The notes under the pieces were generated by a model. The model made no database searches. It had not been told where the DNA came from and was given only the letters and a program-made list of their open reading frames with translations. The position numbers and the translations under genes are program-made. 64,000 nucleotides of DNA from an uncultured candidate division Zixibacteria bacterium (GTDB taxonomy: Bacteria > Zixibacteria > MSB-5A5 > UBA10806 > 4484-95), in the NCBI GenBank assembly GCA_963668625.2, contig CAXXKA010000006.1, forward strand, positions 832,001 to 896,000. The letters run 5' to 3'. Shown piece after piece: positions 1,963-27,701 of the stretch; position 1 is the stretch's first letter; the number at the start of each line of letters is the position of its first letter.

Positions 1963-2026
1963 TGAGAATATAATTTGAAATGTGTGTGTAGTTTATTTTG
2001 TTAAATTGATGATTGAAGGAGAACTT

Positions 2027-2569: not shown

Positions 2570-3048
2570 TGTTAGAGGTTATATATATAATTGGTTCAAT
2601 TGCGTCTATTATTGGAGCTATAATATCATGGCGATTTGCAGGTAGGGCAAGGAAATATGCATCATATGTAATGGAACAATTATCGAATAAGCGAAAAATA
2701 TCTGAATTGGCTGAATTAAAGACAAAATGGGATGAAACTTATGGTGAACTACGTGATTTTGGGCCAGCAATGAGAGAGTCGGAATTGAGAGGGAAAGATT
2801 CTTCTAAAGCGGCTAAGCTAGTTCAAGATTATATTGGTGAAGTAAAAAAGCGTAGTTATAGCCTTAGTAACATAAATAATCTTGATGAAATTTTAAGAGA
2901 AATTGGTATAAAGTTAAAAGAGTTTACTGAGGCATATGAGGCTAAAGTTTTAAAAGATAAAGGAAGCAAGCTATTAGGAGATTTAGGTGATCTGGATGCA
3001 AAAATAAGAGCATCATTTATTGCGGCTAAAGATAAAATTGAAATTTAA
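2569..3048 (+). CDS. hypothetical protein, N-terminal TM helix plus helical domain
   Basis: 159-aa ORF overlapping the yfbU stop; hydrophobic N-terminus IYIIGSIASIIGAIISW. Confidence 0.7.
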   Translation: MLEVIYIIGSIASIIGAIISWRFAGRARKYASYVMEQLSNKRKISELAELKTKWDETYGELRDFGPAMRESELRGKDSSKAAKLVQDYIGEVKKRSYSLSNINNLDEILREIGIKLKEFTEAYEAKVLKDKGSKLLGDLGDLDAKIRASFIAAKDKIEI

Positions 3049-3223
3049 TATCTGAATATGTAATTAAAATAATAAAACTATTACCCTACGCTGAACTTGC
3101 GTGCCCATGGGGTGGCCATAATCGCAATGTTCGCGGCATTCATGAAAACCAAATAAGCATGATTTAATAACCAAACTGTTAGGTGGAGTAGAGGTTAGTA
3201 ATATTATTGAGGGATAATCCAGA

Positions 3224-3904
3224 ATGGTAAAAAGAAGATATAATAAAAAAATAAGAAAGGAAGTTCAGGAAAATAAATATTGGAAAATAATAGTAGATAT
3301 AGCTACTATAGCGATTGCTGGAGGTATGTTATACAATGCTTATTTATTATATGATATAAACGAGGATGTGGCAAAATACAATGAAGCTAATTTACAGCCA
3401 CAATTGTTTGTAAATTTAGATACTTTAGAGACATTTGAATCTAGAGAGAATGAAGTAGAAATAAATAATATTATTGAAGATATTTTAGATTCTATGGATA
3501 TTCATTATTCATGGATAAATAGTGGGGAGACTGTTGCAGTAAATGCTTATGTAATAAAGCCAAGATTATTTTGTGATAATGCGAGTAATATCATTTTACC
3601 AGTACCTCCAAAAAGCGATGTTTATACTTTTATATTACCAAAAAAGGATATTAAAAGAGCATGCAAATTAAGCGGAGATGAAAAAGCATTTAAGAAGTTA
3701 GAAAGAAAGAAGACGGTATATTTATATTTTGCCGTATTTTATGAAGATTTAAAAGAGAAAAAATACTTATCTATTTTTATTAAGGGTATTAAAATCAAAG
3801 AAGACAGTAAAGGTATATATGTAGAACATTATGATGAAAAGCATAAAATAATTAAATTTGAATCAGAATTAGATTCAACGGTAACTATATCGTGGGATTC
3901 TTAA
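3224..3904 (+). CDS. hypothetical protein with one N-terminal TM helix
   Basis: 226-aa AT-rich ORF; TM IIVDIATIAIAGGMLYNAYLLY; GAGGG RBS. Confidence 0.7.
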   Translation: MVKRRYNKKIRKEVQENKYWKIIVDIATIAIAGGMLYNAYLLYDINEDVAKYNEANLQPQLFVNLDTLETFESRENEVEINNIIEDILDSMDIHYSWINSGETVAVNAYVIKPRLFCDNASNIILPVPPKSDVYTFILPKKDIKRACKLSGDEKAFKKLERKKTVYLYFAVFYEDLKEKKYLSIFIKGIKIKEDSKGIYVEHYDEKHKIIKFESELDSTVTISWDS

Positions 3905-3927
3905 ATAATAAATAAAATGTTTAACAT

Positions 3928-4359
3928 ATGAATTACGAATGGATAATAGGATTTGCAGGTATTTTTATTGGTTTTTTCTTAAGCAGAATTGATAAGTTTA
4001 TTGATGAAAGAAAAAGGATTAGGAATGTAAAAAAGATACTAATTAAGGAATTAGAGTTAAATGTTGAAGCGTTAGATATAGCTATAGAAGATAATGAATC
4101 AAATAAAGTGAAGGTGTTATTATCAGCTGGTGATGAATTAAGGATGGATGTATTTAAAAGTTATCTAAATAAGATTGATAATTTGAAATTTCATCAACTT
4201 GATGCTTTATTCGATGGTTATGATTCATTAATATATTACAAAAGTAAATGTGAATTTGTAAGTAAAAAAGAGAATAAAAGACAGTATCAAGATAAGTTAT
4301 ATAAGAATGCTAAGGATACTATGAATGATCTTATTCATGCAATAGAGTCAATTGAATAA
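3928..4359 (+). CDS. hypothetical protein with N-terminal TM helix
   Basis: 143-aa ORF; WIIGFAGIFIGFFLS followed by a basic stretch and ELELN. Confidence 0.7.
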   Translation: MNYEWIIGFAGIFIGFFLSRIDKFIDERKRIRNVKKILIKELELNVEALDIAIEDNESNKVKVLLSAGDELRMDVFKSYLNKIDNLKFHQLDALFDGYDSLIYYKSKCEFVSKKENKRQYQDKLYKNAKDTMNDLIHAIESIE

Positions 4360-11889: not shown

Positions 11890-13349
11890 ATGTTAAAACA
11901 TATGATAAACAAAGAGATAAGAGCAATTTCATTAAGCCCCAAATTCACCGGCACGTTTTTGGTTTGCTCAATACTGATACTTCTTTCCATGTATTCTGGG
12001 ATCAGGGAATATAATGCGATGAACGAGCGCTATCATTCGGCCTCGCAACTCGTAGATCAGAAAATAGAGCAAGTTACATCATGGAGCAGTATGAACACGC
12101 GTGTTTACCGCGAGCCCGATCCGATGCTGGTTTTCGTTTCAGGACTCGACTACGATATCGGCCGCTGGACGCCGATTTCCGATGAAAGCAGTATCAAGCT
12201 AAAAAACAGCGCTTACTCGGATGATCCGATTTATGCCGTATTCAGATTCATCGATTTCGGTTTTATCGTGCAATACGTGCTGACTTTATTTGCGCTGCTG
12301 TTTACGTTCAATGCCATAAACGGGGAACGAGAGGATGGTACGCTCAAGCTGGTGCTATCCAATTCGATTAAAAGAGCTAAATACCTGACCGGCAAGATTG
12401 TCGGTACCTGGCTCAGCCTGGTTATTCCGATAAGTATCCCGGTACTTCTGGGACTTCTCTTGTTGATGATATTCAATGTGCCGCTTGGTGCGGAGGATTG
12501 GCTGAAGATAATATTATTTCTGGTATTTTCGCTGATACTATTCACATTCTTCATTTCGCTGGGGTTGTTGATATCCGCGCTTACCCGAAAATCCTCTACC
12601 TCGTTTTTAATCAGCCTCGTGATCTGGGTTATCCTGGTGATAATCATTCCCCGGGCCGGGATTATGGCTGCTGGTTATATGGTGAACGTGCCGCGCGTGG
12701 CTGAAATAGAAGGGCAGTTAAGCAAGTACTCCCAGGATTTATGGAGGAATTCAATCAGGGATCATCGGAGCGCTGGGCGGAATACGAACAGGAAGGTGAC
12801 GATATATCAATCGATGATGAGATGTTGTGGGAGATGCTCGAGGTCGAGGATTCGCTGCAGCATGTACTCGAACAGAGAATTCATGCTTTCGATTTGAAAC
12901 TGCGAGAGGATTTACGCCAACGGAAAATACAGCAAGAGAGGTTGGCTTACGTACTTTCGGGCATATCGCCAGTGGCCGCTTATCAGATAGGCGCGATGTC
13001 TTTAGCTGGCACCGATGCCGAGATAAAGAAGCGTTACGAGGACGCTGCCAATAACTTCCGACATGAGTTTTACGAGCATGTAGAGAAGAAGAAGAAGGAG
13101 ACCGGTGATCTGGGCAGGATGATCGTTACTTTTACTATGGATGATGATGGCAATCAGAGCATGTCAAGCGCCGGCGACCGCGAGCCGGGCAAGCTCGATA
13201 CCGACGGCCTGCCGAAATTCTCACCACCGAAACAGACATTGAGCGAGGCAATATCGCCCACGGTATTGCCAATCGGTATGATACTGATGTATTCGATAGT
13301 CGCTTTCGGTGCGGCCTCGGTGGCATTCGTAAGGTATGATGTGAGATGA
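11890..13349 (+). pseudogene. second ABC-2 permease subunit, split by a single frameshift near 12743 (pseudogene or sequencing error)
   Basis: ORF 11890-12897 (INGEREDGTLKL) and ORF 12741-13349 (ends RYDVR) join as QDLW-EEFNQ if one G is restored; paralog of the upstream permease. Confidence 0.8.
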
Positions 13350-13432
13350 TGCTGCGGTAGGTCACGCGTGACTAACCCGCGCAAGATTTTACAACCGTGG
13401 TATGCATGAAATAGCAGAGAATTCAACAAGTG

Positions 13433-13675
13433 GTAGCCCACCTCAGGGGGACTATTGAGAAGTCTATTTCATGAGTTGTTGGGCGAACGAAGTCCTTTAT
13501 TCATCTTTTCCCGGCGACATGCCGCATGAATGCAGCAGGAAGGAAAGGATTCCTTCCTGCTCAGTGAAAGATAAAATAGTGGCAGCCCACCTCAGGATAG
13601 AAGATCTGAGGTGGGTTAGCCTGCTTGCAGCAAACGAATATCCCCGCCCCGTTGTCAGGAGCTACAGCTCCTGAC
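13433..13675. repeat. REP-like palindromes
   Basis: CCCACCTCAG-N10-CTGAGGTGGG (13586-13615; half copy ~13436; related copy 40198-40222) and perfect GTCAGGAGCT-ac-AGCTCCTGAC (13654-13675). Confidence 0.65.
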
Positions 13676-13814
13676 CTACGCCTCACCCCATCTCATAAAC
13701 ATCTAAATAAATTATTTCTTCATCATAAAAAAGTTAGCTGACAGTAAATCATCAACTTAGAAAAACAGGTGTGCTTGCACCATCTACTCAGGCTCAATTA
13801 TTATTCATTGCGGC

Positions 13815-13843
13815 TTGACAGCTCGGAAATTCCATCGTATAAA
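13815..13843 (+). promoter_or_regulatory. sigma70 promoter upstream of tdk
   Basis: TTGACA-17 bp-TATAAA. Confidence 0.6.
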
Positions 13844-13879
13844 CACCCGGTTGTAATGTTAATATTAATTCTTCTTTAG

Positions 13880-13998
13880 GAGGTTGTTGAAAAGTTTGTC
13901 ATTAGCGTCGTTAGGAATCCTTTCCTGACGAAATACCGCTTGGAACCAGGTGACAGGAAGGGATTCCTACCACCTCAGGCAGGTTTTTCAACAACCTC
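13880..13998. mobile_element. MITE-like element with 14-bp terminal inverted repeats
   Basis: GAGGTTGTTGAAAA...TTTTCAACAACCTC with an internal IR TAGGAATCCTTTCCTG/CAGGAAGGGATTCCTA; related copy at 39346-39452. Confidence 0.65.
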
Positions 13999-14017
13999 TC
14001 AAGCAACGGTGGTGTGA

Positions 14018-14662
14018 ATGGTTCCCCCGAATGGTGATTTTATTAAACCGGGAGTTCTAGAAGTCTTTCCCGGATGTATGTTCTCGTTTAAAACCAGACG
14101 ATTAGTAGATAGAGTAAGACCGCTTCAACATATACCCGGAGCCAGATTTCTATTTATCCGGCCACAGATCGATACCCGTCCCCCGGATGTTCGCAACGAT
14201 CCGCTCGATTACGCTAACTGGGAGTTCGTTGACCAGAATAATCCCGAGGGCATATTCGACCTGGTACAAACGGTTCATTGCTATATCTCTATCGATGAGG
14301 CGCACTTTTTCGGAGATGGATTCACGCAAGTGATCGAGGAACTTCTACTGGACGGTAAGAATGTAGGAATAGCCGGACTTGATCTCGATTTTAAAGGTGA
14401 ACCGTTTGGCCAGATGCCGGATATCCTGTGTATGGCCAACGAGGTTTACAAAGGCTCGGCTGTCTGCAAATACCCTGGATGCGGCGCGCCTGCCACGCGA
14501 ACTCAGCGGCTGTTAAACGGCCGACCGGCGGATTACGACTCGCCGCTGGTAGCAATCGAGGGCGAGGCGTATTACGAGCCGCGATGCCTGCACCATCACG
14601 AGGTGCCCGGCAAACCCAAGCTGGATACGGTTTATTTTGCCAGAAATGTGCAGAGTAATTAA
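14018..14662 (+). CDS. tdk: thymidine kinase (divergent P-loop)
   Basis: GCMFSFKT, RPQIDTR, IDEAHFF, AGLDLDFKGEPFG, Zn-site CKYPGC...YEPRCLHH, ATRTQR. Confidence 0.85.
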   Translation: MVPPNGDFIKPGVLEVFPGCMFSFKTRRLVDRVRPLQHIPGARFLFIRPQIDTRPPDVRNDPLDYANWEFVDQNNPEGIFDLVQTVHCYISIDEAHFFGDGFTQVIEELLLDGKNVGIAGLDLDFKGEPFGQMPDILCMANEVYKGSAVCKYPGCGAPATRTQRLLNGRPADYDSPLVAIEGEAYYEPRCLHHHEVPGKPKLDTVYFARNVQSN

Positions 14663-14765
14663 CATAGTATTTCAGAATCTTGACATTATCTATATTCCTA
14701 TTTGATATTTTGGGTGCAATTATATAAATTAGCCGCAATTAATTTAAAATATAAAGGGAGGAGCG

Positions 14766-15485
14766 ATGAATACGAGCCAAACTAAAGCCGTAACCGGAAA
14801 CCTGACTATCCATACCAACCCATTGATCGAGCAGGATCTTACTATTATGATGCAACAGGATGCTGATATACGTGATTACAACGGCGCGGTTACTCGTATC
14901 ACTTTCCTGCTTGCCTCTTTAGCCTCAGGTTTGTTAGATACTAAACAGCTCGAATTCACTACTAAATGGGGGGAAACCCAAAGCCAGGTGATCGACTCGC
15001 AGCCGCTTATCATATATATAGAGCGCGGGGTTAAAGCCATGCGTTACCCGTTCGAGCTATTATATCCCAATGCCGATACGCTTACATTAACAGCCTCCCG
15101 GGATGGTGATAATCCGTGGAACGCCAAGCTTACCATGATGAATATCAAATTTCCACCACATAATCCAAAACGTAAGTATATTATTGCGGATGCCACCTGC
15201 GCTACCGGCGGGACTATTTTCGCGGTCGCCGATTACCTCAGGAAAGAGGGCTTGATCTCGCCTGATAATAACGAGGTGGATAATTTGGCGGTAGTCAGCA
15301 TATTCACCGGCCAGCCCGGTCTGGACAGGTTATTCGAGACGTTCCCGAAAATTCATGTGTACACGGCCAGGGTAATTCCCGAGCTCGATAAGCATTGCTA
15401 TTTGATACACGGTCCTTATGATGCCGGTACACGCGGTAATTTCTGTATCGAGACGATTAAGACCATACCTGAGAGTAAGAAGTAG
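14766..15485 (+). CDS. upp: uracil phosphoribosyltransferase-like protein (divergent)
   Basis: NPLIEQDLTIM, PRPP loop IIADATCATGGT, ELDKHCYLIHGPYDAGTR (cf. LNExGYIVPGLGDAGDR). Confidence 0.65.
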   Translation: MNTSQTKAVTGNLTIHTNPLIEQDLTIMMQQDADIRDYNGAVTRITFLLASLASGLLDTKQLEFTTKWGETQSQVIDSQPLIIYIERGVKAMRYPFELLYPNADTLTLTASRDGDNPWNAKLTMMNIKFPPHNPKRKYIIADATCATGGTIFAVADYLRKEGLISPDNNEVDNLAVVSIFTGQPGLDRLFETFPKIHVYTARVIPELDKHCYLIHGPYDAGTRGNFCIETIKTIPESKK

Positions 15486-15572
15486 ACAAAGCCCACTCGG
15501 GGCTTGACTGACCCGCGTACATAATTACAAACACAATTTGAATTTATAGAAACAATTTAGATTAATATATCA

Positions 15573-15952
15573 TCTCATTACGAAGCGCTGCTTCGTGATG
15601 CCGCTGGCATTGGAACGGTTATTTTATAGCCCACGCCGGGTAAGCCGTTTCCCAAGCAGCGCTCGGGAAACAGGGAAAAGAGGGTAGCGCTCGGGAAACA
15701 GGGAATAGACGGCAACGTTTGGAGCACAAGGGAGAAATGCAAATGGATTTCTCCACCCGGTGTCAGCAGCTACAGAACTATGCACCCGATTTGTCGCCCT
15801 CGGCTTTTCGCTATAACTAATTATATCTTATCACTACTGTCCGGCCTTTCCATCTCGTTGCGAAGCGCTGCTTCTCAACGTGGCTTGTTTACCGGCAGAA
15901 TGCGCATTCTACATGACTCAAGAAGGTTTCCAAGCAGCGCTTGGAAACCAGG
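15573..15952. repeat. cluster of REP/BIME-like palindromes
   Basis: CGAAGCGCTGCTTCG (~15581, ~15860), GTTTCCCAAGCAGCGCTCGGGAAAC (~15647) with a duplicated AGCGCTCGGGAAACAGGGAA, and GGTTTCCAAGCAGCGCTTGGAAACC (~15925). Confidence 0.7.
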
Positions 15953-16115: not shown

Positions 16116-16566
16116 TTATTTCCCTATCAGCTCCTCCACCTTGGCTATAACCGCCTCCGGATCGATTGGCTTGTCGATAAACATATCGGGCTTCAGCATA
16201 CCGTCATCCCGCATTTGTTTGATATTTTTTCGCATTGCCTCGCGCAAGGCTGTCGTAGGGACGCTCATGCGTATCATCCGATTCGGCGTCGAGATCATCC
16301 AACACCTCAGCCACGCCGGTAAGCATTATCACCGGTAAATCTTTGTATTTTTCATCCATCCTGAGCTGCTTTATAAGCACGAACCCGGTCTTTTTCGGCA
16401 TCATAACATCCAGTAAAACCAGATCCGGGTTTTGAGCTTTTATCATCTCCAAACCATCCCTACCATTATCGGCGGAGATGGGAGTATAGCCGTTCTCCTC
16501 CAGAGCGGCTGATAAAAACTTGACTGTGCTGACATCATCGTCAACTACCAGAACTTTTTTGGCCAT
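16116..16566 (-). pseudogene. single-domain response regulator, frameshifted near 16247 (or sequencing error)
   Basis: VLVVDDD and LLDVMMP in ORF 16204-16566; C-terminal FIDKPIDPEAVIAKVEEL in ORF 16116-16298; removing one base joins them as PYDSLREAMRK. Confidence 0.8.
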
Positions 16567-18025
16567 GATTGTTCTCCTTGTTTACGCCGGTTGCTGTTAT
16601 TGGAATCACGATCCGAAACACGGTACCCTTATCGGGTTCGGATTCGACATCGATATTTCCATTATGTACTTCGATCATTCTCGAGGTGATAGATAAACCC
16701 AGACCGGTGCCGGCCTTGCTTTTAGTACTGAAAAAAGGCGCGAATATATTGGCCTTGACATCCTCCGGCATTCCGCAGCCGTTGTCACTCACCTCGATAA
16801 CTGCGTTTTCTCCATTATGATTGCGATAAGCGGTAAGCTCAACCCTGGGTGTTTCACCCTCGCTATACTCTTTCCACAGGCAGGCATCGATGGCGTTAGA
16901 AACGATATCCATCACCGAGGAGTGAATCATCCGCGAATCGCACTGAACCAGAGGCATCTCAGGCGAGGAGTGGAGCTGAAATAGCACGCCTTTATCTGCC
17001 GCCGATTTCTCAATCACCTGGTTGATATCAGATAGCAACTGCGATAGGTCGACATCCTCCGGGCGAGGTTTCCACTCTTTAACGTACTTGAGCATATCCA
17101 TCGACATGGCGGTGAGCTTTTCGATACCCTCCTGCACGATATCCCAGCCCTCGGCCAGCATCTTCTTATTATCTTTGGCTATGCCTGTCCTGACCATATA
17201 CGAGCCGCCCTTCAAGGCATTGAGCATGTTTTTCATCGAATGTTGAATGCCGGTGAACACCTCGCCGATTGCCGCCAGACGTTGCGATTGTATAAGCTGT
17301 TTCTGCAGGCGTTTCTCCTCGGTGATATCCTTGCTGATTCCGATAGTGCCGATCATTTCACCGGCCGGATTACGCAGACGCGAGATAGTCAATAGAACAT
17401 CCCTGATCTGGTTATCGCTGGTGCGGAATTTGGTTTCGTAGTTGGCCACGCTTTCACGATGCTCCAACCTGCCGATGGCTATCTCTCTATCGCGAGGATT
17501 GGCAAACAGCATCTCTATAGGTTTGCCTAAAAGATCGAATCTTTTATAGCCAAGGGCATTTTCGGCGCCGGAATTTAGCGAGAGAATTTTACCGGTAGAA
17601 TTGACCGTGATGATTATATCGGCGGTGCTTTCCAGGATGCCCTCCAGATAATCGCGGGCTTTTTTCAGCTCGGCAACGAAAAACGACAGCATATCGGCCA
17701 TATCGTTAAACGAGGAGGCAAGCTCGCTGAATTCATCGCCATCATTCTCATGCAAACGATAGTCGAACTCTTTGTCGGCCAGCTTCTCCATCGCGATCGA
17801 TAACTTGTTCGCCGGTTTTTTGATATACAATCCGACAATGAACCATGAGAATCCGAAACTTAGTATTATTAATATTGATAAGGTGATAATCGTACGAATC
17901 AAACCGCCCCATTCGGAGATACGCAGAAGATAGAATCCGGAAATCAACACCAGCGAGTTTAGTATGAAAAACGCCAGACCCAATTTCCAAAATATCGTGA
18001 CACGAGAATACATGAGTAACCCCAT
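16541..18025 (-). CDS. HAMP-PAS sensor histidine kinase
   Basis: Two TMs, HAMP (DEFSELASSFNDM), PAS, H-box GIQHSMKNML, SNAIDA, DNGCG, GTGLGL. Confidence 0.92.
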   Translation of the reverse strand: MGLLMYSRVTIFWKLGLAFFILNSLVLISGFYLLRISEWGGLIRTIITLSILIILSFGFSWFIVGLYIKKPANKLSIAMEKLADKEFDYRLHENDGDEFSELASSFNDMADMLSFFVAELKKARDYLEGILESTADIIITVNSTGKILSLNSGAENALGYKRFDLLGKPIEMLFANPRDREIAIGRLEHRESVANYETKFRTSDNQIRDVLLTISRLRNPAGEMIGTIGISKDITEEKRLQKQLIQSQRLAAIGEVFTGIQHSMKNMLNALKGGSYMVRTGIAKDNKKMLAEGWDIVQEGIEKLTAMSMDMLKYVKEWKPRPEDVDLSQLLSDINQVIEKSAADKGVLFQLHSSPEMPLVQCDSRMIHSSVMDIVSNAIDACLWKEYSEGETPRVELTAYRNHNGENAVIEVSDNGCGMPEDVKANIFAPFFSTKSKAGTGLGLSITSRMIEVHNGNIDVESEPDKGTVFRIVIPITATGVNKENNHGQKSSGS

Positions 18026-18092
18026 CACCTTAGATTTACGGTAACGACTCGTTGAATACACTTTTCTTTATATCAACAGCCCCCGGTGGCTT

Positions 18093-19292
18093 TTATTCTT
18101 CCAATATAGAGGGTTGCCTGAGTACCCGCGCCTCGGTTGGTAGAAGTTTGAATATTTTCAGGCCGAATCCGAACATGAAACCTATTATACCGAACACTCC
18201 GATTGCCTGGAGCACCTCGAGGAAACTTATCGAATACGAGGCGATTCCCTCCTGTATGACCGACCGGGTTATCTCCATGTTAGGAAATAACTCCGCCGGG
18301 TGGGTAAGCCCCGGAATTACGATAACGTAACGTTCGCATAGCACGCCGAAAATCACCAGGCTGGAGGCCAGTACTATCCACTTGATAGAGCTGCTACGTT
18401 TTTTATTGAACAGTATGAACATGGGGATGACACAACCTACGAATATCAGGCCGAACCAGAACAGCAAGCTGTGCACGCCGCCGAACAGGTAGTACATTGC
18501 AGCTTGCCGAAGCTCGATCACGTAGGCACGATAAGCGTTTTCGACGAATAGAAAGTAAACCACCACCAGTATACAGATAGCCAGGAATCGTCCCAGCCAG
18601 ATTATGAGTTCATCATCCAGGTGACGTTTGGTGACTTTAAACAAGGTAACGATTAGTATTATCATCAAAGCAGTCCCGGAGGCCATAGCGGCCGCGACGA
18701 AGCTGGCCGGCAGCAGGGGAGACTCGTATAGTACTCGCGCGCCGAACCCGAATATCGCCCCGGTGCCTGAATGTACGCAAAATGCCCAGCCGAAAGCCAG
18801 TGTAGCGATCACTTTAGTCAAGGTTCGCCTCTCGGTGAAAAGCGCCCAGAGGTAAACAACACAGATTAAAATATGACCGATATAGAGAATCGGGTTGATC
18901 GAGAACATAGACTGAAGGTTGAAATGCACGAACGGCTCGACAAAAACCCGATCCATTCGACCCTGATCTGTTAGGATGGATAACAGCCCGGCTATCAGAA
19001 ACATCATAGCGACATACACGGCGATACGCGCGAACGGTTTGTATTCGAGTTTGCCGAAAACGCCGTACAGTCCGGAGATAACCAGTGAACCGGCTGATAG
19101 GCCGATATAGTAAACCGCCATTACTATTTGAAGTCCCCACGGTACGCGGGAATACATACCGGTCACCCACAATCCTTTATCGATAATGTATAATGTCGAG
19201 ATCAAACCGGTAATCGCGAAAGCCGCGAAAGTAATCATCACAACCCTATACACGAACGAGTTGCCCTCAATGCTTTCGAATTTTATCTCCAT
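18093..19292 (-). CDS. dsrP: NrfD/DsrP-family integral membrane quinone-interacting subunit
   Basis: About 10 TMs; TGMYSRVPWGLQI, DQGRMDR, HSGTGAIF, ERYVIVIPG; follows dsrJ and dsrO. Confidence 0.85.
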   Translation of the reverse strand: MEIKFESIEGNSFVYRVVMITFAAFAITGLISTLYIIDKGLWVTGMYSRVPWGLQIVMAVYYIGLSAGSLVISGLYGVFGKLEYKPFARIAVYVAMMFLIAGLLSILTDQGRMDRVFVEPFVHFNLQSMFSINPILYIGHILICVVYLWALFTERRTLTKVIATLAFGWAFCVHSGTGAIFGFGARVLYESPLLPASFVAAAMASGTALMIILIVTLFKVTKRHLDDELIIWLGRFLAICILVVVYFLFVENAYRAYVIELRQAAMYYLFGGVHSLLFWFGLIFVGCVIPMFILFNKKRSSSIKWIVLASSLVIFGVLCERYVIVIPGLTHPAELFPNMEITRSVIQEGIASYSISFLEVLQAIGVFGIIGFMFGFGLKIFKLLPTEARVLRQPSILEE

Positions 19293-19317
19293 AATTTACC
19301 TCGTTATTCCCGATTTC

Positions 19318-20058
19318 CTATAAACCGACATAGTAAACTTTCGGATTGGTACCCAGATCCTCCCGCAGTCTCTTAACTGCTGCGTTTCTGACAATGTGGG
19401 AGATTTTACTGTCAGGATCATTGAGGTCGCCAACCAGCAGGGCGTTTGCTCCAATGCGATGGCATACCTCAACACACGCCGGGAGACGACCACTATCCAG
19501 GCGATGAGCGCAAAGGTTACACGATTCGGCAACGCCATGCGATCTTTTGGGGTGGTCTTTATTATTCCAGTGCTCGTTCTCCTTGAAATTGAATGATCGG
19601 GCGTTATACGGGCAGGCGATCATGCAGTAGCGGCAGCCTATACAGCGGTGATGATCGACAATCACTATGCCATCCTCGCGCTTATAGGTAGCCTGCACGG
19701 GGCAAACCTGTGCGCAGGGCGGATTATCGCAATGGTTGCACATCAGTATCACTGATTTCTCGGTGGTTTCGTGCCCGACTTTGCTTTCGAGCTTGACCTT
19801 GCGTATCCAGTTTACATCCCAGCGGTTATCATCGAAATGAGCCACATTGTTTTCCTGACGGCAGGCATCGAGGCAGGCTGTGCAATTCTCGCGGCATTTG
19901 GTCATATCGATGAGCATTCCCCATTTCTTGCCGGCTAAAGGGCTGCCCTCGCTATCCCCATGTATTATCGAGGAGGTCAGGAAACGGAAGGCATATACGC
20001 TGGATGCGCCTATCAAGAAGGTGCCGCCGGTAATTTTTAGAAAATCTCTTCTATCCAT
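19318..20058 (-). CDS. dsrO: DsrO periplasmic 4Fe-4S protein
   Basis: Tat signal MDRRDFLK; WGMLIDMTKC, CNHCDNPPCAQVCP, CIGCRYCMIACPY, CNLCAHR...PACVEVC. Confidence 0.9.
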   Translation of the reverse strand: MDRRDFLKITGGTFLIGASSVYAFRFLTSSIIHGDSEGSPLAGKKWGMLIDMTKCRENCTACLDACRQENNVAHFDDNRWDVNWIRKVKLESKVGHETTEKSVILMCNHCDNPPCAQVCPVQATYKREDGIVIVDHHRCIGCRYCMIACPYNARSFNFKENEHWNNKDHPKRSHGVAESCNLCAHRLDSGRLPACVEVCHRIGANALLVGDLNDPDSKISHIVRNAAVKRLREDLGTNPKVYYVGL

Positions 20059-20082
20059 ATAGAATACACCTCGCTAACGATT

Positions 20083-20451
20083 TTATGGGTAATAGTGACA
20101 GCCGTAACAATCTGGTGTCATGCTTACCGAACTGTGACATTTGTTACAGAACTGCATCCTGTTGGTGTGGCAATCGCGGCATCTGCTCAAGCTGATATCA
20201 CCGCGTTTGCCATAGCGTACGAACTCCTCGCGTACCGATCTTAGCAGCTCCCAGTGGTGGTGACGCATATACTCGGTATCTTTCAGGCATTGCTTGTATT
20301 TAGGGTCGGGCATCTCGAGGAATGGTTTCGATTCCAACGTGGCTTTATGAGATGGATAAGCGATAAGGCTGTATGCAAACGGGAAGAGGATAATCAAAAT
20401 CGGAATAATTATTATAATTTTCGAGGATTTGTTATTGGATACTTTGCTCAT
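20083..20451 (-). CDS. dsrJ: DsrJ triheme cytochrome c
   Basis: N-terminal anchor; QCLKDTEYMRHHH; three CxxCH motifs (CRDCH, CNKCH, CYGCH). Confidence 0.88.
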   Translation of the reverse strand: MSKVSNNKSSKIIIIIPILIILFPFAYSLIAYPSHKATLESKPFLEMPDPKYKQCLKDTEYMRHHHWELLRSVREEFVRYGKRGDISLSRCRDCHTNRMQFCNKCHSSVSMTPDCYGCHYYP

Positions 20452-20460
20452 ACGATCCCC

Positions 20461-21723
20461 CTATCGTTTGATATTAGCAGTTGCAGTTATTTCCGACTCG
20501 ATCTTCCTGCCGGTATGCTCGGCATATACCAGAGCTACCGTACGGTAAACTATATGCGCCAGCTTGGAATAGGGCAGGTATAGCAAAAGCGAGCAGACGA
20601 ATACCAGATGAATGAAATAGGCTATATGACGATGTGGCTCCAGCCTGACATAGTGCAGCGCCTCGGTGATAAAGCCGGTTAAGGTCACGATGAATATCAC
20701 GGCGATCAGCGTCCAGTCGAAATAGTGAGAGGCTGAGGTGTTCTTGCGTTCGCGAAAGCGCTCGAATATCATTACCGATAAACCGCCCAACACCGATAGC
20801 CCGCCGAGATTCGCCAATATCTTCCATGGGCTGAAAAAGCCGAATGGATATACGAAACCATCCTGAGTGAGCGGGTTGATGCTCGAGGTTATAATCCAGA
20901 ACGTAACCGCAGATAATGCTATAAAACCGAAAAAGACACACATATGCGACCAATAACGGGTATGGTTCGAGGTACATTGATCGAAATTCTTGTGAATTAT
21001 TACATTACCGATTGCTGTCAGAATGCTGGAGCCGATACTTTTTACCGGCTTGATATTGTAGTATCTACCGGAGGATGATTTGAGTGTTTTCCAAAATCTG
21101 CTCGCACCGATCGTGATAGCTATCAGGGCCAGCCCGGTTATAATAAAGAAAAAACTATTAAGCAACCAGTGGGGGAAGATGTTGGAATAATTGAATACGA
21201 TTTTGCTTTCGGTGAATCCCGAGATGCCCAGCGTCTTTTCAAGCGGGTCTTTAAGGAATAGCGCTAAACTGAGTAAGATTATCGGTATAGCAATCATCAT
21301 GAGAGCTGCCGCAGGCTGGTTGGCCCATCTGCCTAAAAAACGCGGGAAGGAGTACTGCTCGATTCCATGTTGCCTGATAGCCGCTAAAACATCCCCGGGT
21401 TTGGCTCCCCGTGGGCATCTGACCGAGCAGTCGTTGCACTGGTAGCAAAGCCAGATATCGACATCGGTCATCAACCTGTTTTTCATCCCCCAGCTTGCCC
21501 AGGCCATCTCTTTCGAGGGAAACGGGCTGTGATCGGGCGACAGGGCGCAGGTGCTCGAGCAGGTGCCGCATTGCATGCATAGCTTGTATTGATCACCGCC
21601 GCTTTTGGATAATGCCCTGATGAAATCAAGATCTGGATCGACTACAGACGGCTTGTTGTTGCCTGATGATTCAGGTTGAGCCTCCGGTTGCCCCTGTTTC
21701 TGAATGTTCGCTGTATCCTGCAT
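20461..21723 (-). CDS. qmoC: QmoC, membrane subunit (2x4Fe-4S plus cytochrome b)
   Basis: CMQCGTCSSTC, PFPSKEMAWASWG, WLCYQCNDCSVRCPRGAKPGD, TM domain ending YLPYSKLAH. Confidence 0.92.
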   Translation of the reverse strand: MQDTANIQKQGQPEAQPESSGNNKPSVVDPDLDFIRALSKSGGDQYKLCMQCGTCSSTCALSPDHSPFPSKEMAWASWGMKNRLMTDVDIWLCYQCNDCSVRCPRGAKPGDVLAAIRQHGIEQYSFPRFLGRWANQPAAALMMIAIPIILLSLALFLKDPLEKTLGISGFTESKIVFNYSNIFPHWLLNSFFFIITGLALIAITIGASRFWKTLKSSSGRYYNIKPVKSIGSSILTAIGNVIIHKNFDQCTSNHTRYWSHMCVFFGFIALSAVTFWIITSSINPLTQDGFVYPFGFFSPWKILANLGGLSVLGGLSVMIFERFRERKNTSASHYFDWTLIAVIFIVTLTGFITEALHYVRLEPHRHIAYFIHLVFVCSLLLYLPYSKLAHIVYRTVALVYAEHTGRKIESEITATANIKR

Positions 21724-21797
21724 AACACTCTCATTGTTTTTCCGTGATGTTTAGCCGTTGATGCTCCTTTGTTTTATCTATATATGTTAATACTGTA

Positions 21798-24071
21798 TTA
21801 CATTCCCTTGAACGGGTTCATGCCGATTTCCTCGATCATCTCGGCGAAATTATTGAATATCTCCGGCAGCTTATGATAGTCCGATATTTGCAGCTGGTGA
21901 AGCTCCAGGCGTTGATCCTCCATCGACATCTGCTCCAGTTTTTCCCGAATATTTCCGCTTCGGTAATCTGCCAGCTCGCTGCCCTTGCAGAAATGACACT
22001 GGTAATCATCCCCGTACTTACAGCCGATTAGTATGACGCCATCATAGCCTTTCGATATCGCCTCGGTAATCCAAACACTATTTACCGATCCCAAACACCT
22101 GATAGGAATCACCCTGACAAACGGGCTGTAACTCAAGCGATGTTGCCCCATCAAATCCATAGCCGGGAAAGCATCATTTTCGCACATGATAGCCAGTATC
22201 CGGGGTTTCTCCTCGAACTCATCGGGAACCTCGATAGCCTGAATCATCGAGACGATTATATTAACCGAGAAATCCTTAAACGATACGATACGTTCGGGAC
22301 AGGCGCCCAGGCATACGCCGCATCTACGGCAGCGGGTTGCCTGAAGTAATGGCGTGCCTTTGGTATCTTCGTTTAATACGCCGAACGGACATTCCTCGGT
22401 GCAGCGTTTGCACTGAGTACATTTTTGCAGGAAGAAATCGGGATACGATTTATCACCCGCCCGGGGATGAACGGCCTCGCCTCGGGAGGTCATCTCGATA
22501 CACTGGATCGCTTTCAAGGCCGCGCCGGTAGCGTCCTCGATACTGTTGGAGCTATCCATGGGCGCGCGCACGGCCCCGGCAGGGTAGATGCCGGTACGGC
22601 GGCTCTCATAGGGGAAACAGATGAAATGCGAATCGGGGAAACCGTATTCCAGCGTCGGCAGGTCTGGTCCCTGACGGTATACCAGGTTCAATATCTCGGT
22701 TTTATCATGAGCCGCCAGTTCATCTATTTTGTCCTCGGCGGTTTTGCGCTGAGTATCCGTTTCACCTTTAATCATTGCTATTTTGGCATCCTCGAGCGCG
22801 CGTATTTTCTCACCATCGGCGGAGTTTGGTACCATCCCGGTAGCCATCACGATGAGGTCGACGCTAACCTGAATCCGGTCGCCGGGCATCGTGTTCTTAG
22901 CGGTGATTATCAACTTGCCATCCTTGCTTTCGCTGACCTCGGCGATATCGCCGCGCGTGAAGAATATGCCCTCATCCTCCTGCGCCGCCCGGTAAAAATC
23001 CTCGTACAATCCGGAGGTACGGATGAACTCGTAAAATATGAACGCCTTTGTATCGGAGCCTTGCTGACGGAGATACATGGCTTGTTTTATCGAGGTCAAA
23101 CAACAGATAGAGGAGCAGTATGAGTGATGTTCTTTATTGCGCGAACCGCCACATTGTATGAAGGCGATAGATTTGACCTCTTTGCCATCGGAGGGACGGC
23201 TTATCTTACCATAGTTTTTAACCATCTCCTCAAAATCAACGTTACGTATTACATTGTTGAATTTAGCGTAGGGTAAATTGCTGTCTATGGCCTTTGGCCT
23301 CCAGCCGGTCGCTTGAACGATAGAACCTACCCTGAAAGTATCAAGCGGCTCGGCATCGATATTGCCGTTTTCGGAAGGTTTAACCGTGACATCGAACAAG
23401 CCGGGCGCGCCCTCGATACGTGAGGTAACCGCCGATTTGAATACTTTAACACGCTTGTGATGCTCGACTTGCTCGATCAATTCGTTAACACCGACATCCT
23501 CAAGCTCACGGAACGGCGGTTTCGTTGGAATGGATTTATGTTGTTTGCCAAGCCAGCCGCCGAGCTTATCGGATTTCTCCACCAGTTTGACTTTATAGCC
23601 GGTATTGGCCGCTTCCAGGGCCGCGGTTAATCCGGTGATGCCGCCGCCTACTACCAGGATATTCTTGTTGATCTCCTCCTCGGATTTAAACGGCTCGAGC
23701 GGCTGCATTTTTTTGATTTTAGCGATATACATGCGCAGGTAGTCCTCGGCCATCATCTGCGTATCCTCCTCGTTGGGAGGCTGGCACCAGACCACATGCT
23801 CACGTATGGGGATTTTCTCGACTATCACATCCGCCGGAAACATATCATCACTGTATTGACGGGGTGATACGCCGGCGATAACCACCTTATTGAGCTGCTG
23901 GCTTTCTATATCGCGATTAATCGATTCTATATCGGGTATCTCGCATGAATCGATTTTCTTACAGAAAGGCGCCTTGTGCTCATCGGTGGCTACCTTACAC
24001 AATGCCTCGATATCGATTGCCTCGGCTATTCCATAACCCGTACATATGAAGACACCTATTTTATCCTCCAT
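21798..24071 (-). CDS. qmoB: QmoB (HdrA-like FAD/FeS domain fused to an MvhD-like domain)
   Basis: GGGITG, FIQCGGSR, CSSICC, DSHFICFPYESRRTGIY, two 4Fe-4S motifs, CENDA/RCLGS/GCKYGDDYQCHF; GAGG RBS before ATG 24071. Confidence 0.93.
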   Translation of the reverse strand: MEDKIGVFICTGYGIAEAIDIEALCKVATDEHKAPFCKKIDSCEIPDIESINRDIESQQLNKVVIAGVSPRQYSDDMFPADVIVEKIPIREHVVWCQPPNEEDTQMMAEDYLRMYIAKIKKMQPLEPFKSEEEINKNILVVGGGITGLTAALEAANTGYKVKLVEKSDKLGGWLGKQHKSIPTKPPFRELEDVGVNELIEQVEHHKRVKVFKSAVTSRIEGAPGLFDVTVKPSENGNIDAEPLDTFRVGSIVQATGWRPKAIDSNLPYAKFNNVIRNVDFEEMVKNYGKISRPSDGKEVKSIAFIQCGGSRNKEHHSYCSSICCLTSIKQAMYLRQQGSDTKAFIFYEFIRTSGLYEDFYRAAQEDEGIFFTRGDIAEVSESKDGKLIITAKNTMPGDRIQVSVDLIVMATGMVPNSADGEKIRALEDAKIAMIKGETDTQRKTAEDKIDELAAHDKTEILNLVYRQGPDLPTLEYGFPDSHFICFPYESRRTGIYPAGAVRAPMDSSNSIEDATGAALKAIQCIEMTSRGEAVHPRAGDKSYPDFFLQKCTQCKRCTEECPFGVLNEDTKGTPLLQATRCRRCGVCLGACPERIVSFKDFSVNIIVSMIQAIEVPDEFEEKPRILAIMCENDAFPAMDLMGQHRLSYSPFVRVIPIRCLGSVNSVWITEAISKGYDGVILIGCKYGDDYQCHFCKGSELADYRSGNIREKLEQMSMEDQRLELHQLQISDYHKLPEIFNNFAEMIEEIGMNPFKGM

Positions 24072-24075
24072 AACC

Positions 24076-25335
24076 TCACTCTCCTTCATTCAGGCATTGA
24101 ATAGCTTTCAGTGCGGCCGAGGTAGAATCCTTTGTCGCCCGCGAAACCTCGCACGGATGCTTGGCGCAGCCGACAGCGTAAATACCGTTGCCGTTCGCGC
24201 CGTTGTCTATGAATCCGTATTTATCATAATTGACCTCAACCGGGAATTTCAGTCCCTCGGTATTGGGTACCATACCGGTTGCCAGCACCACCATATCGAA
24301 TTGGTCATGCAGGTTCTCTCGAGTGATAGTGTCCTCGACATCAAGGATGAGATTGTGATTATCTCTCTCGGAGATTTCAGCCACCTTACCTTTTATGAAA
24401 TTGATATGATCATCATCAAGGATGTTGTAGTAGAATTTCTCGTGACGGCCAACTGCGCGGATATCTATGTAAAACATGGTTGCTTTAGTGTTTTCGTTAC
24501 TCTGCCTGAGATATCTCATATGTTTAAGCGAGGCCATGCAACAAACAGCCGAGCAGTAGGGGAGATGGTTGTCATCCCGGGAGCCCGCGCATTGCACGAA
24601 CGCCACGTTCTCCGCCGGTTTGCCATCGGAGGGGCGAAGTATTTTACCGCCGGTGGGGCCGCCCGCCGAGGCGAAACGTTCCATCATGACATTAGTAATT
24701 ACATTAGGGAATTTGCCATAACCGAGGTTGTCGAGATTGTTAGCGTCGTAAGGATGCCAGCCGGTGGCTACGATTATCGCGCCGACATCGAAAGCAATCA
24801 CCTTATCTGTCATTTCCAAATCGATTGCTCCCTCAGGGCAGATTTTCAGTATGTTGTCGGCGTCCTCCTCGGAAAGCGCCTCGCGATCGAGCATGTAGGT
24901 AGAGGGATATGCCATATCATGAGGTATGTACAGGGCTTTGGTGTTATCCAGGCCATAGTTGAAATCGTTTGGCCGTTCGGATTTCAGCTTATCGGCCATT
25001 TCCTCATCGATAGGTTTCCGGCCGGTTACATATCTTGGCTTAAGCCTTACTTTCACCCGGAAATCTCCAACCTCGCCGGAGATTTTCTCTACCTCGGCTA
25101 AAGTGTGTATTGTAATCCGGGGATTATTTCTGATTCTCCTGGTGTTGATTTCGAAGCCGCAGGTGGGTGGGCACATTTTGGGGAAATAGCGGTACATGCG
25201 CATTACCCTGCCGCCCAGATATGCCTCTTTTTCGACAAGTATAACCCGATAACCTACCTCGGCTGCCTCGACTGCCGCAGTTATGCCTGCAATTCCACCG
25301 CCAATTACCAGAATTGGTTTCGCATTGTTATTCAT
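24076..25335 (-). CDS. qmoA: QmoA (short HdrA-like flavoprotein)
   Basis: GGGIAG, YFPKMCPPTCG, FVQCAGSRD, YCSAVCCMASLK, C-terminal AALKAIQ. Confidence 0.92.
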   Translation of the reverse strand: MNNNAKPILVIGGGIAGITAAVEAAEVGYRVILVEKEAYLGGRVMRMYRYFPKMCPPTCGFEINTRRIRNNPRITIHTLAEVEKISGEVGDFRVKVRLKPRYVTGRKPIDEEMADKLKSERPNDFNYGLDNTKALYIPHDMAYPSTYMLDREALSEEDADNILKICPEGAIDLEMTDKVIAFDVGAIIVATGWHPYDANNLDNLGYGKFPNVITNVMMERFASAGGPTGGKILRPSDGKPAENVAFVQCAGSRDDNHLPYCSAVCCMASLKHMRYLRQSNENTKATMFYIDIRAVGRHEKFYYNILDDDHINFIKGKVAEISERDNHNLILDVEDTITRENLHDQFDMVVLATGMVPNTEGLKFPVEVNYDKYGFIDNGANGNGIYAVGCAKHPCEVSRATKDSTSAALKAIQCLNEGE

Positions 25336-25958
25336 TTTTATCTCTCGAATTAAATATTGATATCATCGATGTTTCACCTTGCGCTGATACTAGTGGACCG
25401 TAGAGTCGCATTATTTCCGGTATAGTTGTCCGTTCAGTCATTTTTAAAAAAGAAAATAATAAACGCACGATAACCGGAGACCGGCTGTAATACCACTGTG
25501 ATAGTTTCCCTGTTGTATTCTTATTTTCAAAGAAAAACAGAAATTATATTGTAATGTCTCTGGTGCTAATCTTGTAAATTGATATTGCTAACTTAACCTA
25601 CGTTCATATCAGAAATTTGTCAAGAGTTTTTTATTCGATTAATATTACACTTTATGTTCGCATAGTAAAAATAACGAACTCCGATTGTACTAAAATTATT
25701 AAGAAATATAGCAAGAGTTAACACGATTCACTATACGAGTTTTTGATAAGAGATATTAATTTGTGAATCCCGAATCGGCGCTACACCGGTTTTTGGGGGC
25801 AGATAGATACTAGATATTGCATTATAAGTTATTTAAATTGTATCAGAGAATATTTAACCTGCTCAATCAGACCTATAAAATGCCGAAATCTATAACAAGT
25901 CGTGATATCTCGGTTAGGTCTAATATTTTACGCGTGTTTCGTTGGAGTGATCGATTAG

Positions 25959-27701
25959 GTGATAAAAATCAAACTTAATATGCTGATTATTGGTTCGCAG
26001 TATAAAACCATTAATAAAATTCGCGCTATTCTAAAACATACCGAACAAATGGATGTTAAAGTTACTTACTCGTACAGCTTTGCCAATGGCCTGGCAAAAT
26101 GCCGGGATAATCATCATGATATTATTCTGATAAGCAAAAGCACCGAGAGTTATACCGAATTGGAGATATTGGAAACTCTCAGGCATGAGGGAGATGATCG
26201 CCCGATCGTGGTTATTTCCAGTATCTATGATGACAACCTGGCGGCTTCACTCATTAAGGCCGGCGCGGATGATTATATGCGTGCGGATACTATTGATGAG
26301 GGCTCGTTTTTAAAATCCGTAAGATATGCCCTGGATCGTTCTCGAATGCGTTTGATGTTAAAACGTGCCCAGCAATTGGAACATCATATGGCCTACCATG
26401 ATCAATTGACCAATCTTCCTAACCGTCAGCTTCTAATTGACAGGCTTCACCAGGCAATCAATCAGAGCCTGCGTTCGGGCGTGTACATGGGGGTTATTTA
26501 TCTGGATTTGAATGAGTTCAAGGATGTTAACGATACACTGGGCCATAAGATAGGTGATTTGCTGTTAAAGTCGGTGGCCGAGCGTCTGAAGCATAGTATT
26601 CGCCAGAGTGATACGGTATCACGGCTGGGTGGGGATGAGTTTATGGTAATACTAAACGGAATCGCCGGCCCTCGCGATGCCGCGCGAGTTGCTAAAAAGA
26701 TCAATATCGAACTGGCTAAACCTCATAAACTGGAGAACCATTCAGTCAGCATGTCAGCCAGTATCGGAATCAGTATTTTCCCGTGGGATGGCGACAATGT
26801 CGATTCGCTTATGAAAAACGCCGATAAAGCAATGTATTTGGCCAAGCGTTACAACACCGGGTACCAATTTTACCATCGTACCATGAACGAGCAGGTTGAG
26901 GCGAAAATCAGACTCGAACGAAACCTGTTAAACGCCCTGAAAAATGACGAGCTAGTGCTTCATTTTCAGCCCATACTCGAAACATATAGTAATAATGTCA
27001 GCGCTTTCGAGGTACTATTAAGATGGAACCATCCCGAGGTTGGCATGATGTATCCGATCGATTTCTTGCCCGTGGCCGAGGAGAGCGATCTTATCCAGAA
27101 GATTCAGAGCTGGGTCATAAATGCCAGTATAGGGTATCTTGAAGAAATTAGAAAATTCAATTATACTGCCAAATTTTCCATTAATGTATGTAATCGGGTA
27201 AATCAAAGAGACGATTATAAACAATGGTTCGATTATAAAATCAGCGAGTTCGGAAACTACGCGGAAAATTTCATACTGGAATTTAACGATCCAACCTCGA
27301 TGGAAAATATAGATGATTTATCGATTTTGCTAAGGCAGGCTAAAAAAAACGGCCTTCAGGTTGTGATAGATAATTTCGGTAGCGGTTTCTCCTCGCTGGC
27401 TTTATTAAATAATTTACCACTTGATATGGTCAAAATCGATAGATCGCTTTTGAAAGTTGATTCTCAATCGTTAAATGATATTCAATTACTTGATGGCCTG
27501 GTTGATTTGACTCATCGCATAGGGCTAAAATCGATAGCCTCCGGAATAGAGACAAAGGAGCAGGATTTGTTCGCCGACAGGATAGAATGCGATTTGAAAC
27601 AAGGTTATTACTACAGTAAACCGTTTCCCGGCAGTCAATTGAAATCATACATAAGTAATTCAATGAAATCTGCGAAACAGACGTTCAGCCAGGTAAAGTG
27701 A
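25959..27701 (+). CDS. REC-GGDEF-EAL protein (intact GGDEF, degenerate EAL and REC)
   Basis: HDQLTNLPNR and RLGGDEF; EAL domain reads EVL, LEFND, IDNFGSG, ASGIE. Confidence 0.9.
   Translation: MIKIKLNMLIIGSQYKTINKIRAILKHTEQMDVKVTYSYSFANGLAKCRDNHHDIILISKSTESYTELEILETLRHEGDDRPIVVISSIYDDNLAASLIKAGADDYMRADTIDEGSFLKSVRYALDRSRMRLMLKRAQQLEHHMAYHDQLTNLPNRQLLIDRLHQAINQSLRSGVYMGVIYLDLNEFKDVNDTLGHKIGDLLLKSVAERLKHSIRQSDTVSRLGGDEFMVILNGIAGPRDAARVAKKINIELAKPHKLENHSVSMSASIGISIFPWDGDNVDSLMKNADKAMYLAKRYNTGYQFYHRTMNEQVEAKIRLERNLLNALKNDELVLHFQPILETYSNNVSAFEVLLRWNHPEVGMMYPIDFLPVAEESDLIQKIQSWVINASIGYLEEIRKFNYTAKFSINVCNRVNQRDDYKQWFDYKISEFGNYAENFILEFNDPTSMENIDDLSILLRQAKKNGLQVVIDNFGSGFSSLALLNNLPLDMVKIDRSLLKVDSQSLNDIQLLDGLVDLTHRIGLKSIASGIETKEQDLFADRIECDLKQGYYYSKPFPGSQLKSYISNSMKSAKQTFSQVK

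Follow-up and report, generated by a model that had tools for sequence, protein, structure and literature searches.

A conserved operon of qmoABC and dsrJOP paralogues in Zixibacteria and other phyla probably encodes a single membrane-spanning complex

The DsrMKJOP (Hme) complex of sulfate reducers, sulfur oxidisers and Archaeoglobus contains a trio of subunits, DsrJOP, which comprises a membrane-anchored triheme cytochrome with a conserved cysteine, a four-cluster protein exported by the twin-arginine pathway and a ten-helix NrfD-type membrane subunit; this trio is paired with a dihaem cytochrome b of the HdrE/NarI type that reaches cytoplasmic iron-sulfur subunits. A passage of the 2024 study that assigned a function to DsrMKJOP calls the role of the DsrJOP subunits 'an enigma' (PMC10861901). 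For a second membrane complex, QmoABC, the only demonstrated partner is the adenosine 5'-phosphosulfate (APS) reductase AprAB (Ramos et al. 2012 and Duarte et al. 2016, cited in a section of PMC6303296). Here we describe an operon that joins paralogues of both systems, located in a 64,000-nucleotide stretch of DNA (referred to as the window) from an uncultured Zixibacteria bacterium (contig CAXXKA010000006.1, positions 832,001 to 896,000). Six open reading frames (ORFs), qmoA-qmoB-qmoC-dsrJ-like-dsrO-like-dsrP-like, are arranged head to tail on the minus strand (18093-25335). The Qmo and JOP modules very probably form one complex, which would have QmoC in the place of DsrM, and we consider it fairly probable that the operon encodes a membrane-spanning QmoABC-DsrJOP complex which represents a second, separately regulated Qmo form of dissimilatory sulfur metabolism.

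Like DsrMKJOP, the operon combines a JOP-like trio with a cytochrome b of the HdrE/NarI type. However, it encodes neither DsrM nor DsrK, so that the CCG-domain catalytic subunit for DsrC trisulfide is missing; QmoC and the flavoproteins QmoA and QmoB stand in the places of DsrM and DsrK, and the DsrJ-like and DsrP-like proteins fall below the respective NCBIfam cut-offs. The Qmo part resembles canonical QmoABC in that its QmoC exceeds the family cut-off, QmoA and QmoB are about half identical to the canonical proteins of the same genome, and the domain sets are equal. In contrast to the canonical genes, whose qmoC lies beside aprBA and sat on another contig, the operon adjoins neither of these; it always adds three subunits facing the periplasm or the quinone pool, and its QmoC forms a distinct clade in which conserved residues of the outer face are changed. 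A further point of comparison is alternative complex III (ActABCDEF), whose quinol-oxidising NrfD-type subunit ActC is the nearest match to the DsrP-like fold and which shares the wiring from an NrfD-type subunit via a periplasmic iron-sulfur protein to c-type haems. Whereas the electrons of alternative complex III stay in the periplasm, those of the complex proposed here would be passed back through a cytochrome b to cytoplasmic flavoproteins. No ActA-, ActB- or ActF-type gene is present among the eight genes of the unit, which has only the ActC-like fold; the resemblance is thus one of mechanism and not of membership. Modular reshuffling of HdrA-, HdrC- and HdrE-like parts is also known from QmoAB-HdrBC, QmoAB-HdrD and the HdrED of methanogens, as described in a part of PMC10504309, but in the two QmoAB variants the membrane part is missing or the cytoplasmic part is exchanged, whereas the operon adds a periplasmic/quinone module.

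According to the ORF coordinates (Table 1), qmoA and qmoB overlap by 14 nt, and gaps of 74, 9, 24 and 25 nt separate qmoB from qmoC, qmoC from dsrJ, dsrJ from dsrO and dsrO from dsrP, respectively. The whole unit comprises eight genes: past dsrP it extends to position 16204 with a histidine kinase gene, which follows after 31 nt, and a gene for a receiver-only response regulator, which overlaps the kinase gene by 26 nt; both are likewise on the minus strand. Searches of the window by tblastn with the genome's own AprA, AprB, Sat, DsrA, DsrB, DsrM and DsrK as queries gave no match. The first-pass annotation of this DNA, made from the sequence alone, had described just this situation, namely six closely spaced genes on one strand with dsrJ starting right behind the qmoC stop codon, a divergent GGDEF gene instead of aprAB or sat upstream, and no dsrM or dsrK in the window, and all of it was borne out.

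The same arrangement is found far beyond the genome analysed here and is much more than a chance adjacency. Scanning a single genome for each species, we recovered 47 loci outside the genome of the window. In 35 of them the six genes are complete and colinear, and no counter-example was found where the available DNA suffices; the other 12 are incomplete, as 11 of them meet a contig end (the genes that fit staying in order) and one contains a 100-N scaffold gap. Judged by the record titles, the loci come from at least seven groups (Zixibacteria, KSB1, LCP-89, Calditrichaeota, Planctomycetota, Acidobacteriota and Ignavibacteria). When the DsrP-like protein was used as query, 1073 of the 8000 candidates scored were matches; the 120 matches listed are 76-93% identical, and their named sources are Zixibacteria, KSB1, LCP-89, Calditrichaeota, Planctomycetota and Candidatus Electryonea. 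The DsrP-like protein is the most conserved subunit of the set (Table 1), which is unusual for a membrane subunit and suggests that its role goes beyond anchoring the complex.

We consider that the Qmo and JOP modules very probably form one complex because natural fusion proteins of QmoC and DsrJ exist. With the DsrJ of the window alone as query no fused form was found; a profile built from 31 DsrJ-like sequences and run against longer proteins then gave four, which are 526-556 amino acids (aa) long and consist of a complete operon-type QmoC, a linker of about 30 residues, and the DsrJ anchor helix with the triheme domain. Pairwise identities among the four are just 62-83%, so the fusion must have been inherited and cannot be put down to sequencing error. 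One of the four was checked at the DNA level and forms a single stop-free frame of 547 codons with qmoB upstream and dsrO downstream. On the predicted topology the fusion is also sound, as a QmoC of six helices whose N-terminal domain is cytoplasmic would also have its C-terminus on that side, from which the DsrJ anchor would run outward. In line with this, a dsrJ match lies downstream of a full-length QmoC in 46 of 80 metagenome loci, the fusion included; dsrJ follows directly after QmoC in 42 of the 46 and lies about 5 kb away in four (L150, L157, L159, L173). Another 16 of the 80 loci encode a less similar QmoC, followed by at least 600 nt of downstream DNA with no dsrJ match.

In a quick maximum-likelihood tree, whose support values are those of the Shimodaira-Hasegawa-like approximate likelihood ratio test (SH-aLRT) only, operon-type QmoC proteins group in a single clade (37 rows, SH-aLRT 98). 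Four rows from Planctomycetota, found in an ordinary qmoB-qmoC-sat context without JOP genes, make up the sister clade, and the other canonical copies form a separate clade of 23 rows. The operon type and the canonical type have five conserved histidines in common (H185, H244, H260, H372 and H390). The operon type is set apart by an invariant H357 and the stretch LEPHRH at 361-366, of which E362-P363-H364-R365-H366 are type-specific, whereas canonical and sister copies have an invariant R357, and Y366 is shared by all canonical copies and by half of those in the sister clade. In the structural model of QmoC, H357 and the LEPHRH stretch are located at the outer end of helices 5 and 6, and going by the helix order they would lie on the periplasmic side, which fits a periplasmic face remodelled for the operon type. 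The last QmoC helix (367-391) is homologous to helix 252-276 of the DsrM of the same genome, with 48% identity over 25 residues including both histidines. Taken together with the fusions, this supports the proposal of the first-pass annotation that the membrane domain of QmoC takes the place of DsrM.

QmoA matches HdrA2 (360.8 bits) and Pfam families for flavin adenine dinucleotide (FAD)-binding and Rossmann folds; QmoB matches HdrA2 (391.3 bits) and 4Fe-4S Fer4 families and has a C-terminal MvhD/FlpD domain (125.7 bits). A model specific to QmoA or QmoB is not among the matches listed for the window proteins, so their membership is a matter of similarity. QmoC exceeds the cut-off of NF038018 (385.9 versus 300 bits); two CxxCxxCxxxC motifs can be read in its cytoplasmic HdrC-like domain, and its AlphaFold2 model has six long helices (predicted local distance difference test, pLDDT, 72.7; predicted template modelling score, pTM, 0.73). 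The DsrJ-like protein is below the cut-off of NF038038 (72.1 versus 100 bits). When aligned with the canonical DsrJ of the genome, it has in common with it an N-terminal hydrophobic helix, a conserved cysteine that is a candidate ligand (Cys55) and three CXXCH motifs, and three such motifs are present in all 31 of 31 operon-type copies. The DsrO-like protein exceeds the cut-off of NF045797 (296.4 versus 200 bits), matches Fer4_11, and shows in its sequence a twin-arginine signal (RRDFLK) and four cysteine cluster motifs. The DsrP-like protein is well below the cut-off of NF045798 (76.6 versus 350 bits) and matches Pfam NrfD with 158.9 bits. Its AlphaFold2 model (pLDDT 78, pTM 0.82, about ten helices) has its best fold matches in the ActC chains of alternative complex III (query-based template modelling score, TMq, 0.73-0.74; E about 1e-10), with ActF ranking behind them and PsrC far behind. 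Several invariant stretches of this protein (117-134, 176-192) fall within low-confidence loops of the model; these stretches are candidate contacts to a partner or to quinone. Sequence searches of the PDB with the DsrP-like, QmoC and DsrJ-like proteins returned no solved DsrMKJOP or Qmo complex, the matches being ActC (E 9e-4) and HdrC chains only. A complex prediction for the DsrP-like and DsrJ-like proteins with QmoC 125-420, run with alignments and without controls, scored 0.18 against a mark of 0.32 and was used neither for nor against an interface.

The genome (4.3 Mb in 10 contigs, 95.9% complete) also encodes the canonical counterparts of all six subunits. Contig C1 carries a full canonical locus with sat-aprB-aprA, a divergent qmoC (410.7 bits), and qmoA-qmoB beside dsrA-dsrB; it also holds dsrN-like, dsrL-like (NF009410, 565.8 bits) and dsrC genes as well as dsrM (534.5 bits), dsrK (715.1), dsrJ (171.2), dsrO (315.4) and dsrP (474.4). 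This locus is the only place in the genome where DsrM and DsrK are encoded. Since canonical aprBA, qmoABC and dsrMKJOP exist elsewhere in the genome, the operon in the window is an extra paralogous set and no replacement of the canonical genes, and because the JOP-like proteins are only 24-43% identical to their canonical counterparts, they must be old paralogues. As a single aprA over the cut-off was found, both Qmo sets would share the same AprA. The first-pass annotation had named two findings that would speak against it, canonical complexes of dsrMK and aprAB elsewhere combined with the lack of a QmoC-DsrP interface, and an adjacency unique to this assembly; the canonical genes do exist elsewhere in the genome, while the adjacency is not unique. 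The canonical region spans about 35 kb in one piece (contig C1 of genome G000, approximately 500900-535300, loci L005 and L006). In it, qmoC is split from qmoAB: the latter are located beside dsrAB, and some 17 kb from there qmoC stands divergent to sat-aprBA. The interval contains four paralogues that encode proteins of 456-492 aa with C-terminal sorting domains of the type IX secretion system.

Table 1. Features of the operon region in the window, with the amino acid identity of each subunit to its canonical copy in the same genome and its median identity to 35 other loci
Feature	Position	Strand	Evidence	Identity to canonical copy	Median identity to 35 other loci
qmoA paralogue, HdrA-like FAD protein, 419 aa	24076-25335	-	ORF; HdrA2 and FAD/Rossmann Pfam matches	53%	67%
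qmoB paralogue, HdrA-like flavoprotein, 763 aa	21798-24089	-	ORF; FlpD, Fer4 and HdrA2 matches	51%	71%
qmoC paralogue, HdrC-like domain and six-helix membrane domain (HdrE/NarI/DsrM type)	20461-21723	-	NF038018	35%	54%
dsrJ-like, membrane-anchored triheme cytochrome c, 122 aa	20083-20451	-	NF038038 (below cut-off) and motifs	35%	54%
dsrO-like, periplasmic iron-sulfur protein, 246 aa	19318-20058	-	NF045797, Fer4_11	43%	67%
dsrP-like, NrfD-family membrane subunit, 399 aa, about ten helices	18093-19292	-	Pfam NrfD	24%	77% (68-87% to copies in other phyla)
HAMP-PAS histidine kinase	16541-18061	-	Pfam HAMP, PAS, HATPase_c		
Receiver-only response regulator, 120 aa	16204-16566	-	Response_reg		
Intergenic region between qmoA and divergent gene, presumed promoter region	25336-25958	.	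sigma-70-like matches, weak		
Receiver-GGDEF-EAL gene, divergent upstream neighbour of qmoA	25959-27701	+	receiver, GGDEF and EAL domains		

The operon is an accessory of organisms with a full dissimilatory sulfur pathway, as is evident from the co-occurrence of dsrA and aprA in the carrier genomes: dsrA is over the cut-off in 43 of the 47, and aprA is found in 42, of which 41 exceed the cut-off. By row count, 37 of the 47 have two QmoC genes that pass the cut-off. Among 151 evenly sampled genomes from the phylum of the window, in which relatives are not independent, operon-type DsrP was found in 12 genomes, dsrA in 55 and aprA in 54; dsrA is present in every one of the 12 carriers, and the 96 dsrA-negative genomes include no carrier. 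These counts contradict the earlier suggestion that the complex need not be linked to sulfate respiration. The initial interpretation of this locus is thus supported as to the conserved adjacency and QmoC as a stand-in for DsrM, but not as to independence from sulfate respiration. In an Acidobacteriota bin (G073:C121:28560-29612) a QmoC match is located beside dsrA within an open frame of 639 aa, which may be a fusion or an over-extended frame. The window itself encodes, at 57511-58167 on the plus strand and among housekeeping genes, a 218-aa protein with two tandem TusE/DsrC-family domains (104 bits, two stretches), which is 33-37% identical to the DsrC of the genome.

How such a complex might work can be outlined from its parts. 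The DsrP-like subunit, ten-helix, NrfD-type and shaped like ActC, would exchange electrons with menaquinol/menaquinone; the exported four-cluster DsrO-like protein and then the triheme DsrJ-like cytochrome would transport electrons along the periplasmic face; and the dihaem b domain of QmoC, in the position of DsrM, would carry them across the membrane. From the HdrC-like clusters of QmoC they would pass to QmoB, QmoA and finally a cytoplasmic acceptor, for which APS reductase (AprBA) is our best guess. The APS step would thereby gain the JOP add-on that the DsrC-trisulfide step has in DsrMKJOP, which might provide a second quinone site and possibly a quinone cycle, proton uptake and release, or electron transfer assisted by the proton-motive force. 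The kinase and receiver pair encoded with the operon would switch the complex on. We infer the assembly of all six subunits, the direction of electron flow, AprBA as partner and the coupling to energy; for flow direction, acceptor and proton coupling we draw on the families involved, as characterized in parts of PMC10861901 and PMC6303296.

Several observations weigh against a complex of this kind or against APS reductase as its partner. Just 12 of the 55 dsrA-positive Zixibacteria sampled have the operon, which is therefore dispensable, and as the aprA and dsrA sets of this sample nearly coincide, their co-occurrence with the operon does not tell whether the partner belongs to the Apr or to the Dsr system. 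Within 10 kb of the operon, none of the 47 loci has an apr, sat or dsrAB gene. Three metagenome bins (G065, G077 and G082) encode an operon-type QmoB, and neither a canonical QmoB nor aprA was found in them; if this absence holds, the complex can work without APS reductase. In G077, moreover, operon and dsr locus are about 10 kb apart. In one further genome (G086:C24:2411-4695, locus L066) the qmoB of the operon contains several in-frame stops (TGA, TAA and TAG), and would be either a decaying copy or the product of assembly indel errors. The putative link to AprBA is drawn only from what is known of canonical QmoABC and from co-occurrence. The bins without aprA and the position of the operon in G077 would be accounted for by a single Qmo-JOP complex in which QmoAB deliver electrons to, or take them from, a different cytoplasmic partner in the Dsr pathway or in central redox metabolism, such as DsrC or DsrAB supply, ferredoxin or NAD(P), perhaps with flavin-based bifurcation or confurcation, or working in an oxidative or disproportionating direction. 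The HdrA-like nature of the flavoproteins QmoA and QmoB and the DsrL-like gene in the dsr locus of the genome also point this way; according to sections of PMC10591310, dsrAB-carrying Zixibacteria, Acidobacteriota and AABM5-125-24 combine dsrD with a type-2 dsrL, and type-2 dsrL occurs in reductive, disproportionating and oxidative organisms. We nevertheless regard a partner other than APS reductase as rather unlikely, since the completeness of the three bins is not established, aprA is present in most carriers, AprAB is the only partner demonstrated for Qmo, and QmoA and QmoB are still 51-53% identical to the canonical pair.

It is also conceivable that the operon encodes two independent, co-transcribed complexes, a spare QmoABC and a spare DsrJOP docking on the canonical DsrMK. 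Both modules have canonical counterparts in the genome and their interface is not demonstrated, but the persistence of QmoC-DsrJ fusions across considerable sequence divergence, the strict co-inheritance of the six genes across phyla, the fact that JOP genes follow only the operon-type clade of QmoC and the type-specific residues on its predicted periplasmic face make this improbable. We give still less credence to a complex that is mainly a redox sensor, one that informs the neighbouring kinase and receiver about the state of the quinone pool or about sulfur or redox species in the periplasm and does not carry bulk respiratory flux. Counted over 48 loci (the 47 and the window), the kinase cluster is present in 39, in 27 of them directly after dsrP on the same strand as read from the gene strings, and the receiver-only regulator in 28; no other flanking gene cluster recurs widely among these loci. 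The kinase has two N-terminal membrane segments with a short outer loop, almost none, and a cytoplasmic PAS domain, and the regulator (Response_reg, 70 bits) has neither an output domain nor a DNA-binding domain, all of which would suit a sensor. However, six subunits with about 15 cofactors would be a costly sensor, two-component systems commonly adjoin the operons under their control, and in Planctomycetota and Acidobacteriota the kinase is nearby but varies in position and orientation. That the locus owes its form to faulty assembly, or to a recent loss of dsrMK in this genome alone, is practically out of the question. A misjoin or recent loss was rejected because the same order is found in the colinear loci of other genomes, and dsrJ directly follows qmoC in the 42 metagenome loci; the adjacency that had first drawn attention to this locus is thus real. 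A recent deletion was rejected also because an intact dsrMKJOP is kept elsewhere and the JOP-like proteins have diverged so far from it.

Energy conservation in sulfate respiration is still an open question, and the QmoABC-DsrJOP operon bears on how the weakly exergonic step from menaquinol to APS is driven. It amounts to a natural experiment in which a JOP-type module is placed on a different cytochrome b and a different cytoplasmic module, and the job of JOP should therefore be separable from the chemistry of DsrK and DsrC in a testable manner. Tentatively, and with considerable doubt, DsrJOP might be viewed as a portable energy-coupling adaptor for any HdrE-type cytochrome b, be it DsrM or QmoC, that in these bacteria makes the APS step either chemiosmotically coupled, or reversible and assisted by the proton-motive force; if so, the enigmatic role of DsrJOP would be independent of DsrK and DsrC chemistry. 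The QmoABC-DsrJOP complex is probably undescribed. The passages of full-text papers returned by a literature search (PMC10504309, PMC10861901, PMC10564751, PMC10591310, PMC9324843, PMC6303296 and bioRxiv 10.1101/2020.04.01.018762) contain no description of a Qmo-DsrJOP complex; a Zixibacteria row in Supplementary Table 1 of PMC10504309 lists 'QmoC-DsrO-DsrP' as raw synteny and is uncommented in the available portion of the text. In their sources, DsrP-like proteins are named polysulfide reductase NrfD, molybdoenzyme membrane anchor or '[DsrC]-trisulfide reductase subunit P', and with such labels marker-gene surveys probably count the genes of the operon as ordinary qmo and dsr genes.

The operon-type QmoC of the window clusters with those of a KSB1 single-cell genome and an unclassified bin (support 92) and not with the copy from the same genus, whereas the canonical QmoC of the genome pairs with that of a genome of the same genus (support 99). 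Operon-type DsrP was found in only two of 40 close relatives. The different placement of the two QmoC types would point to transfer between phyla.

Upstream of the operon, two minus-strand sigma-70-like matches are located at 25866-25837 and 25759-25730. The promoter evidence is weak because a promoter and terminator scan of this region, 25336-25958, gave a match count not above that of shuffled sequence. In five loci (L024 at 13302-15622, and L026, L027, L029 and L061) two tandem genes of the citrate synthase family are found immediately downstream of the kinase and receiver genes on the opposite strand. Elsewhere in the window, a low-GC island at 1982-4359 on the plus strand (30% GC versus about 45% elsewhere, with strong GC skew) contains four small ORFs, the first with a YfbU domain and the other three without Pfam match, and a very long ORF of 1837 aa extends on the plus strand from 46657 to 52170.

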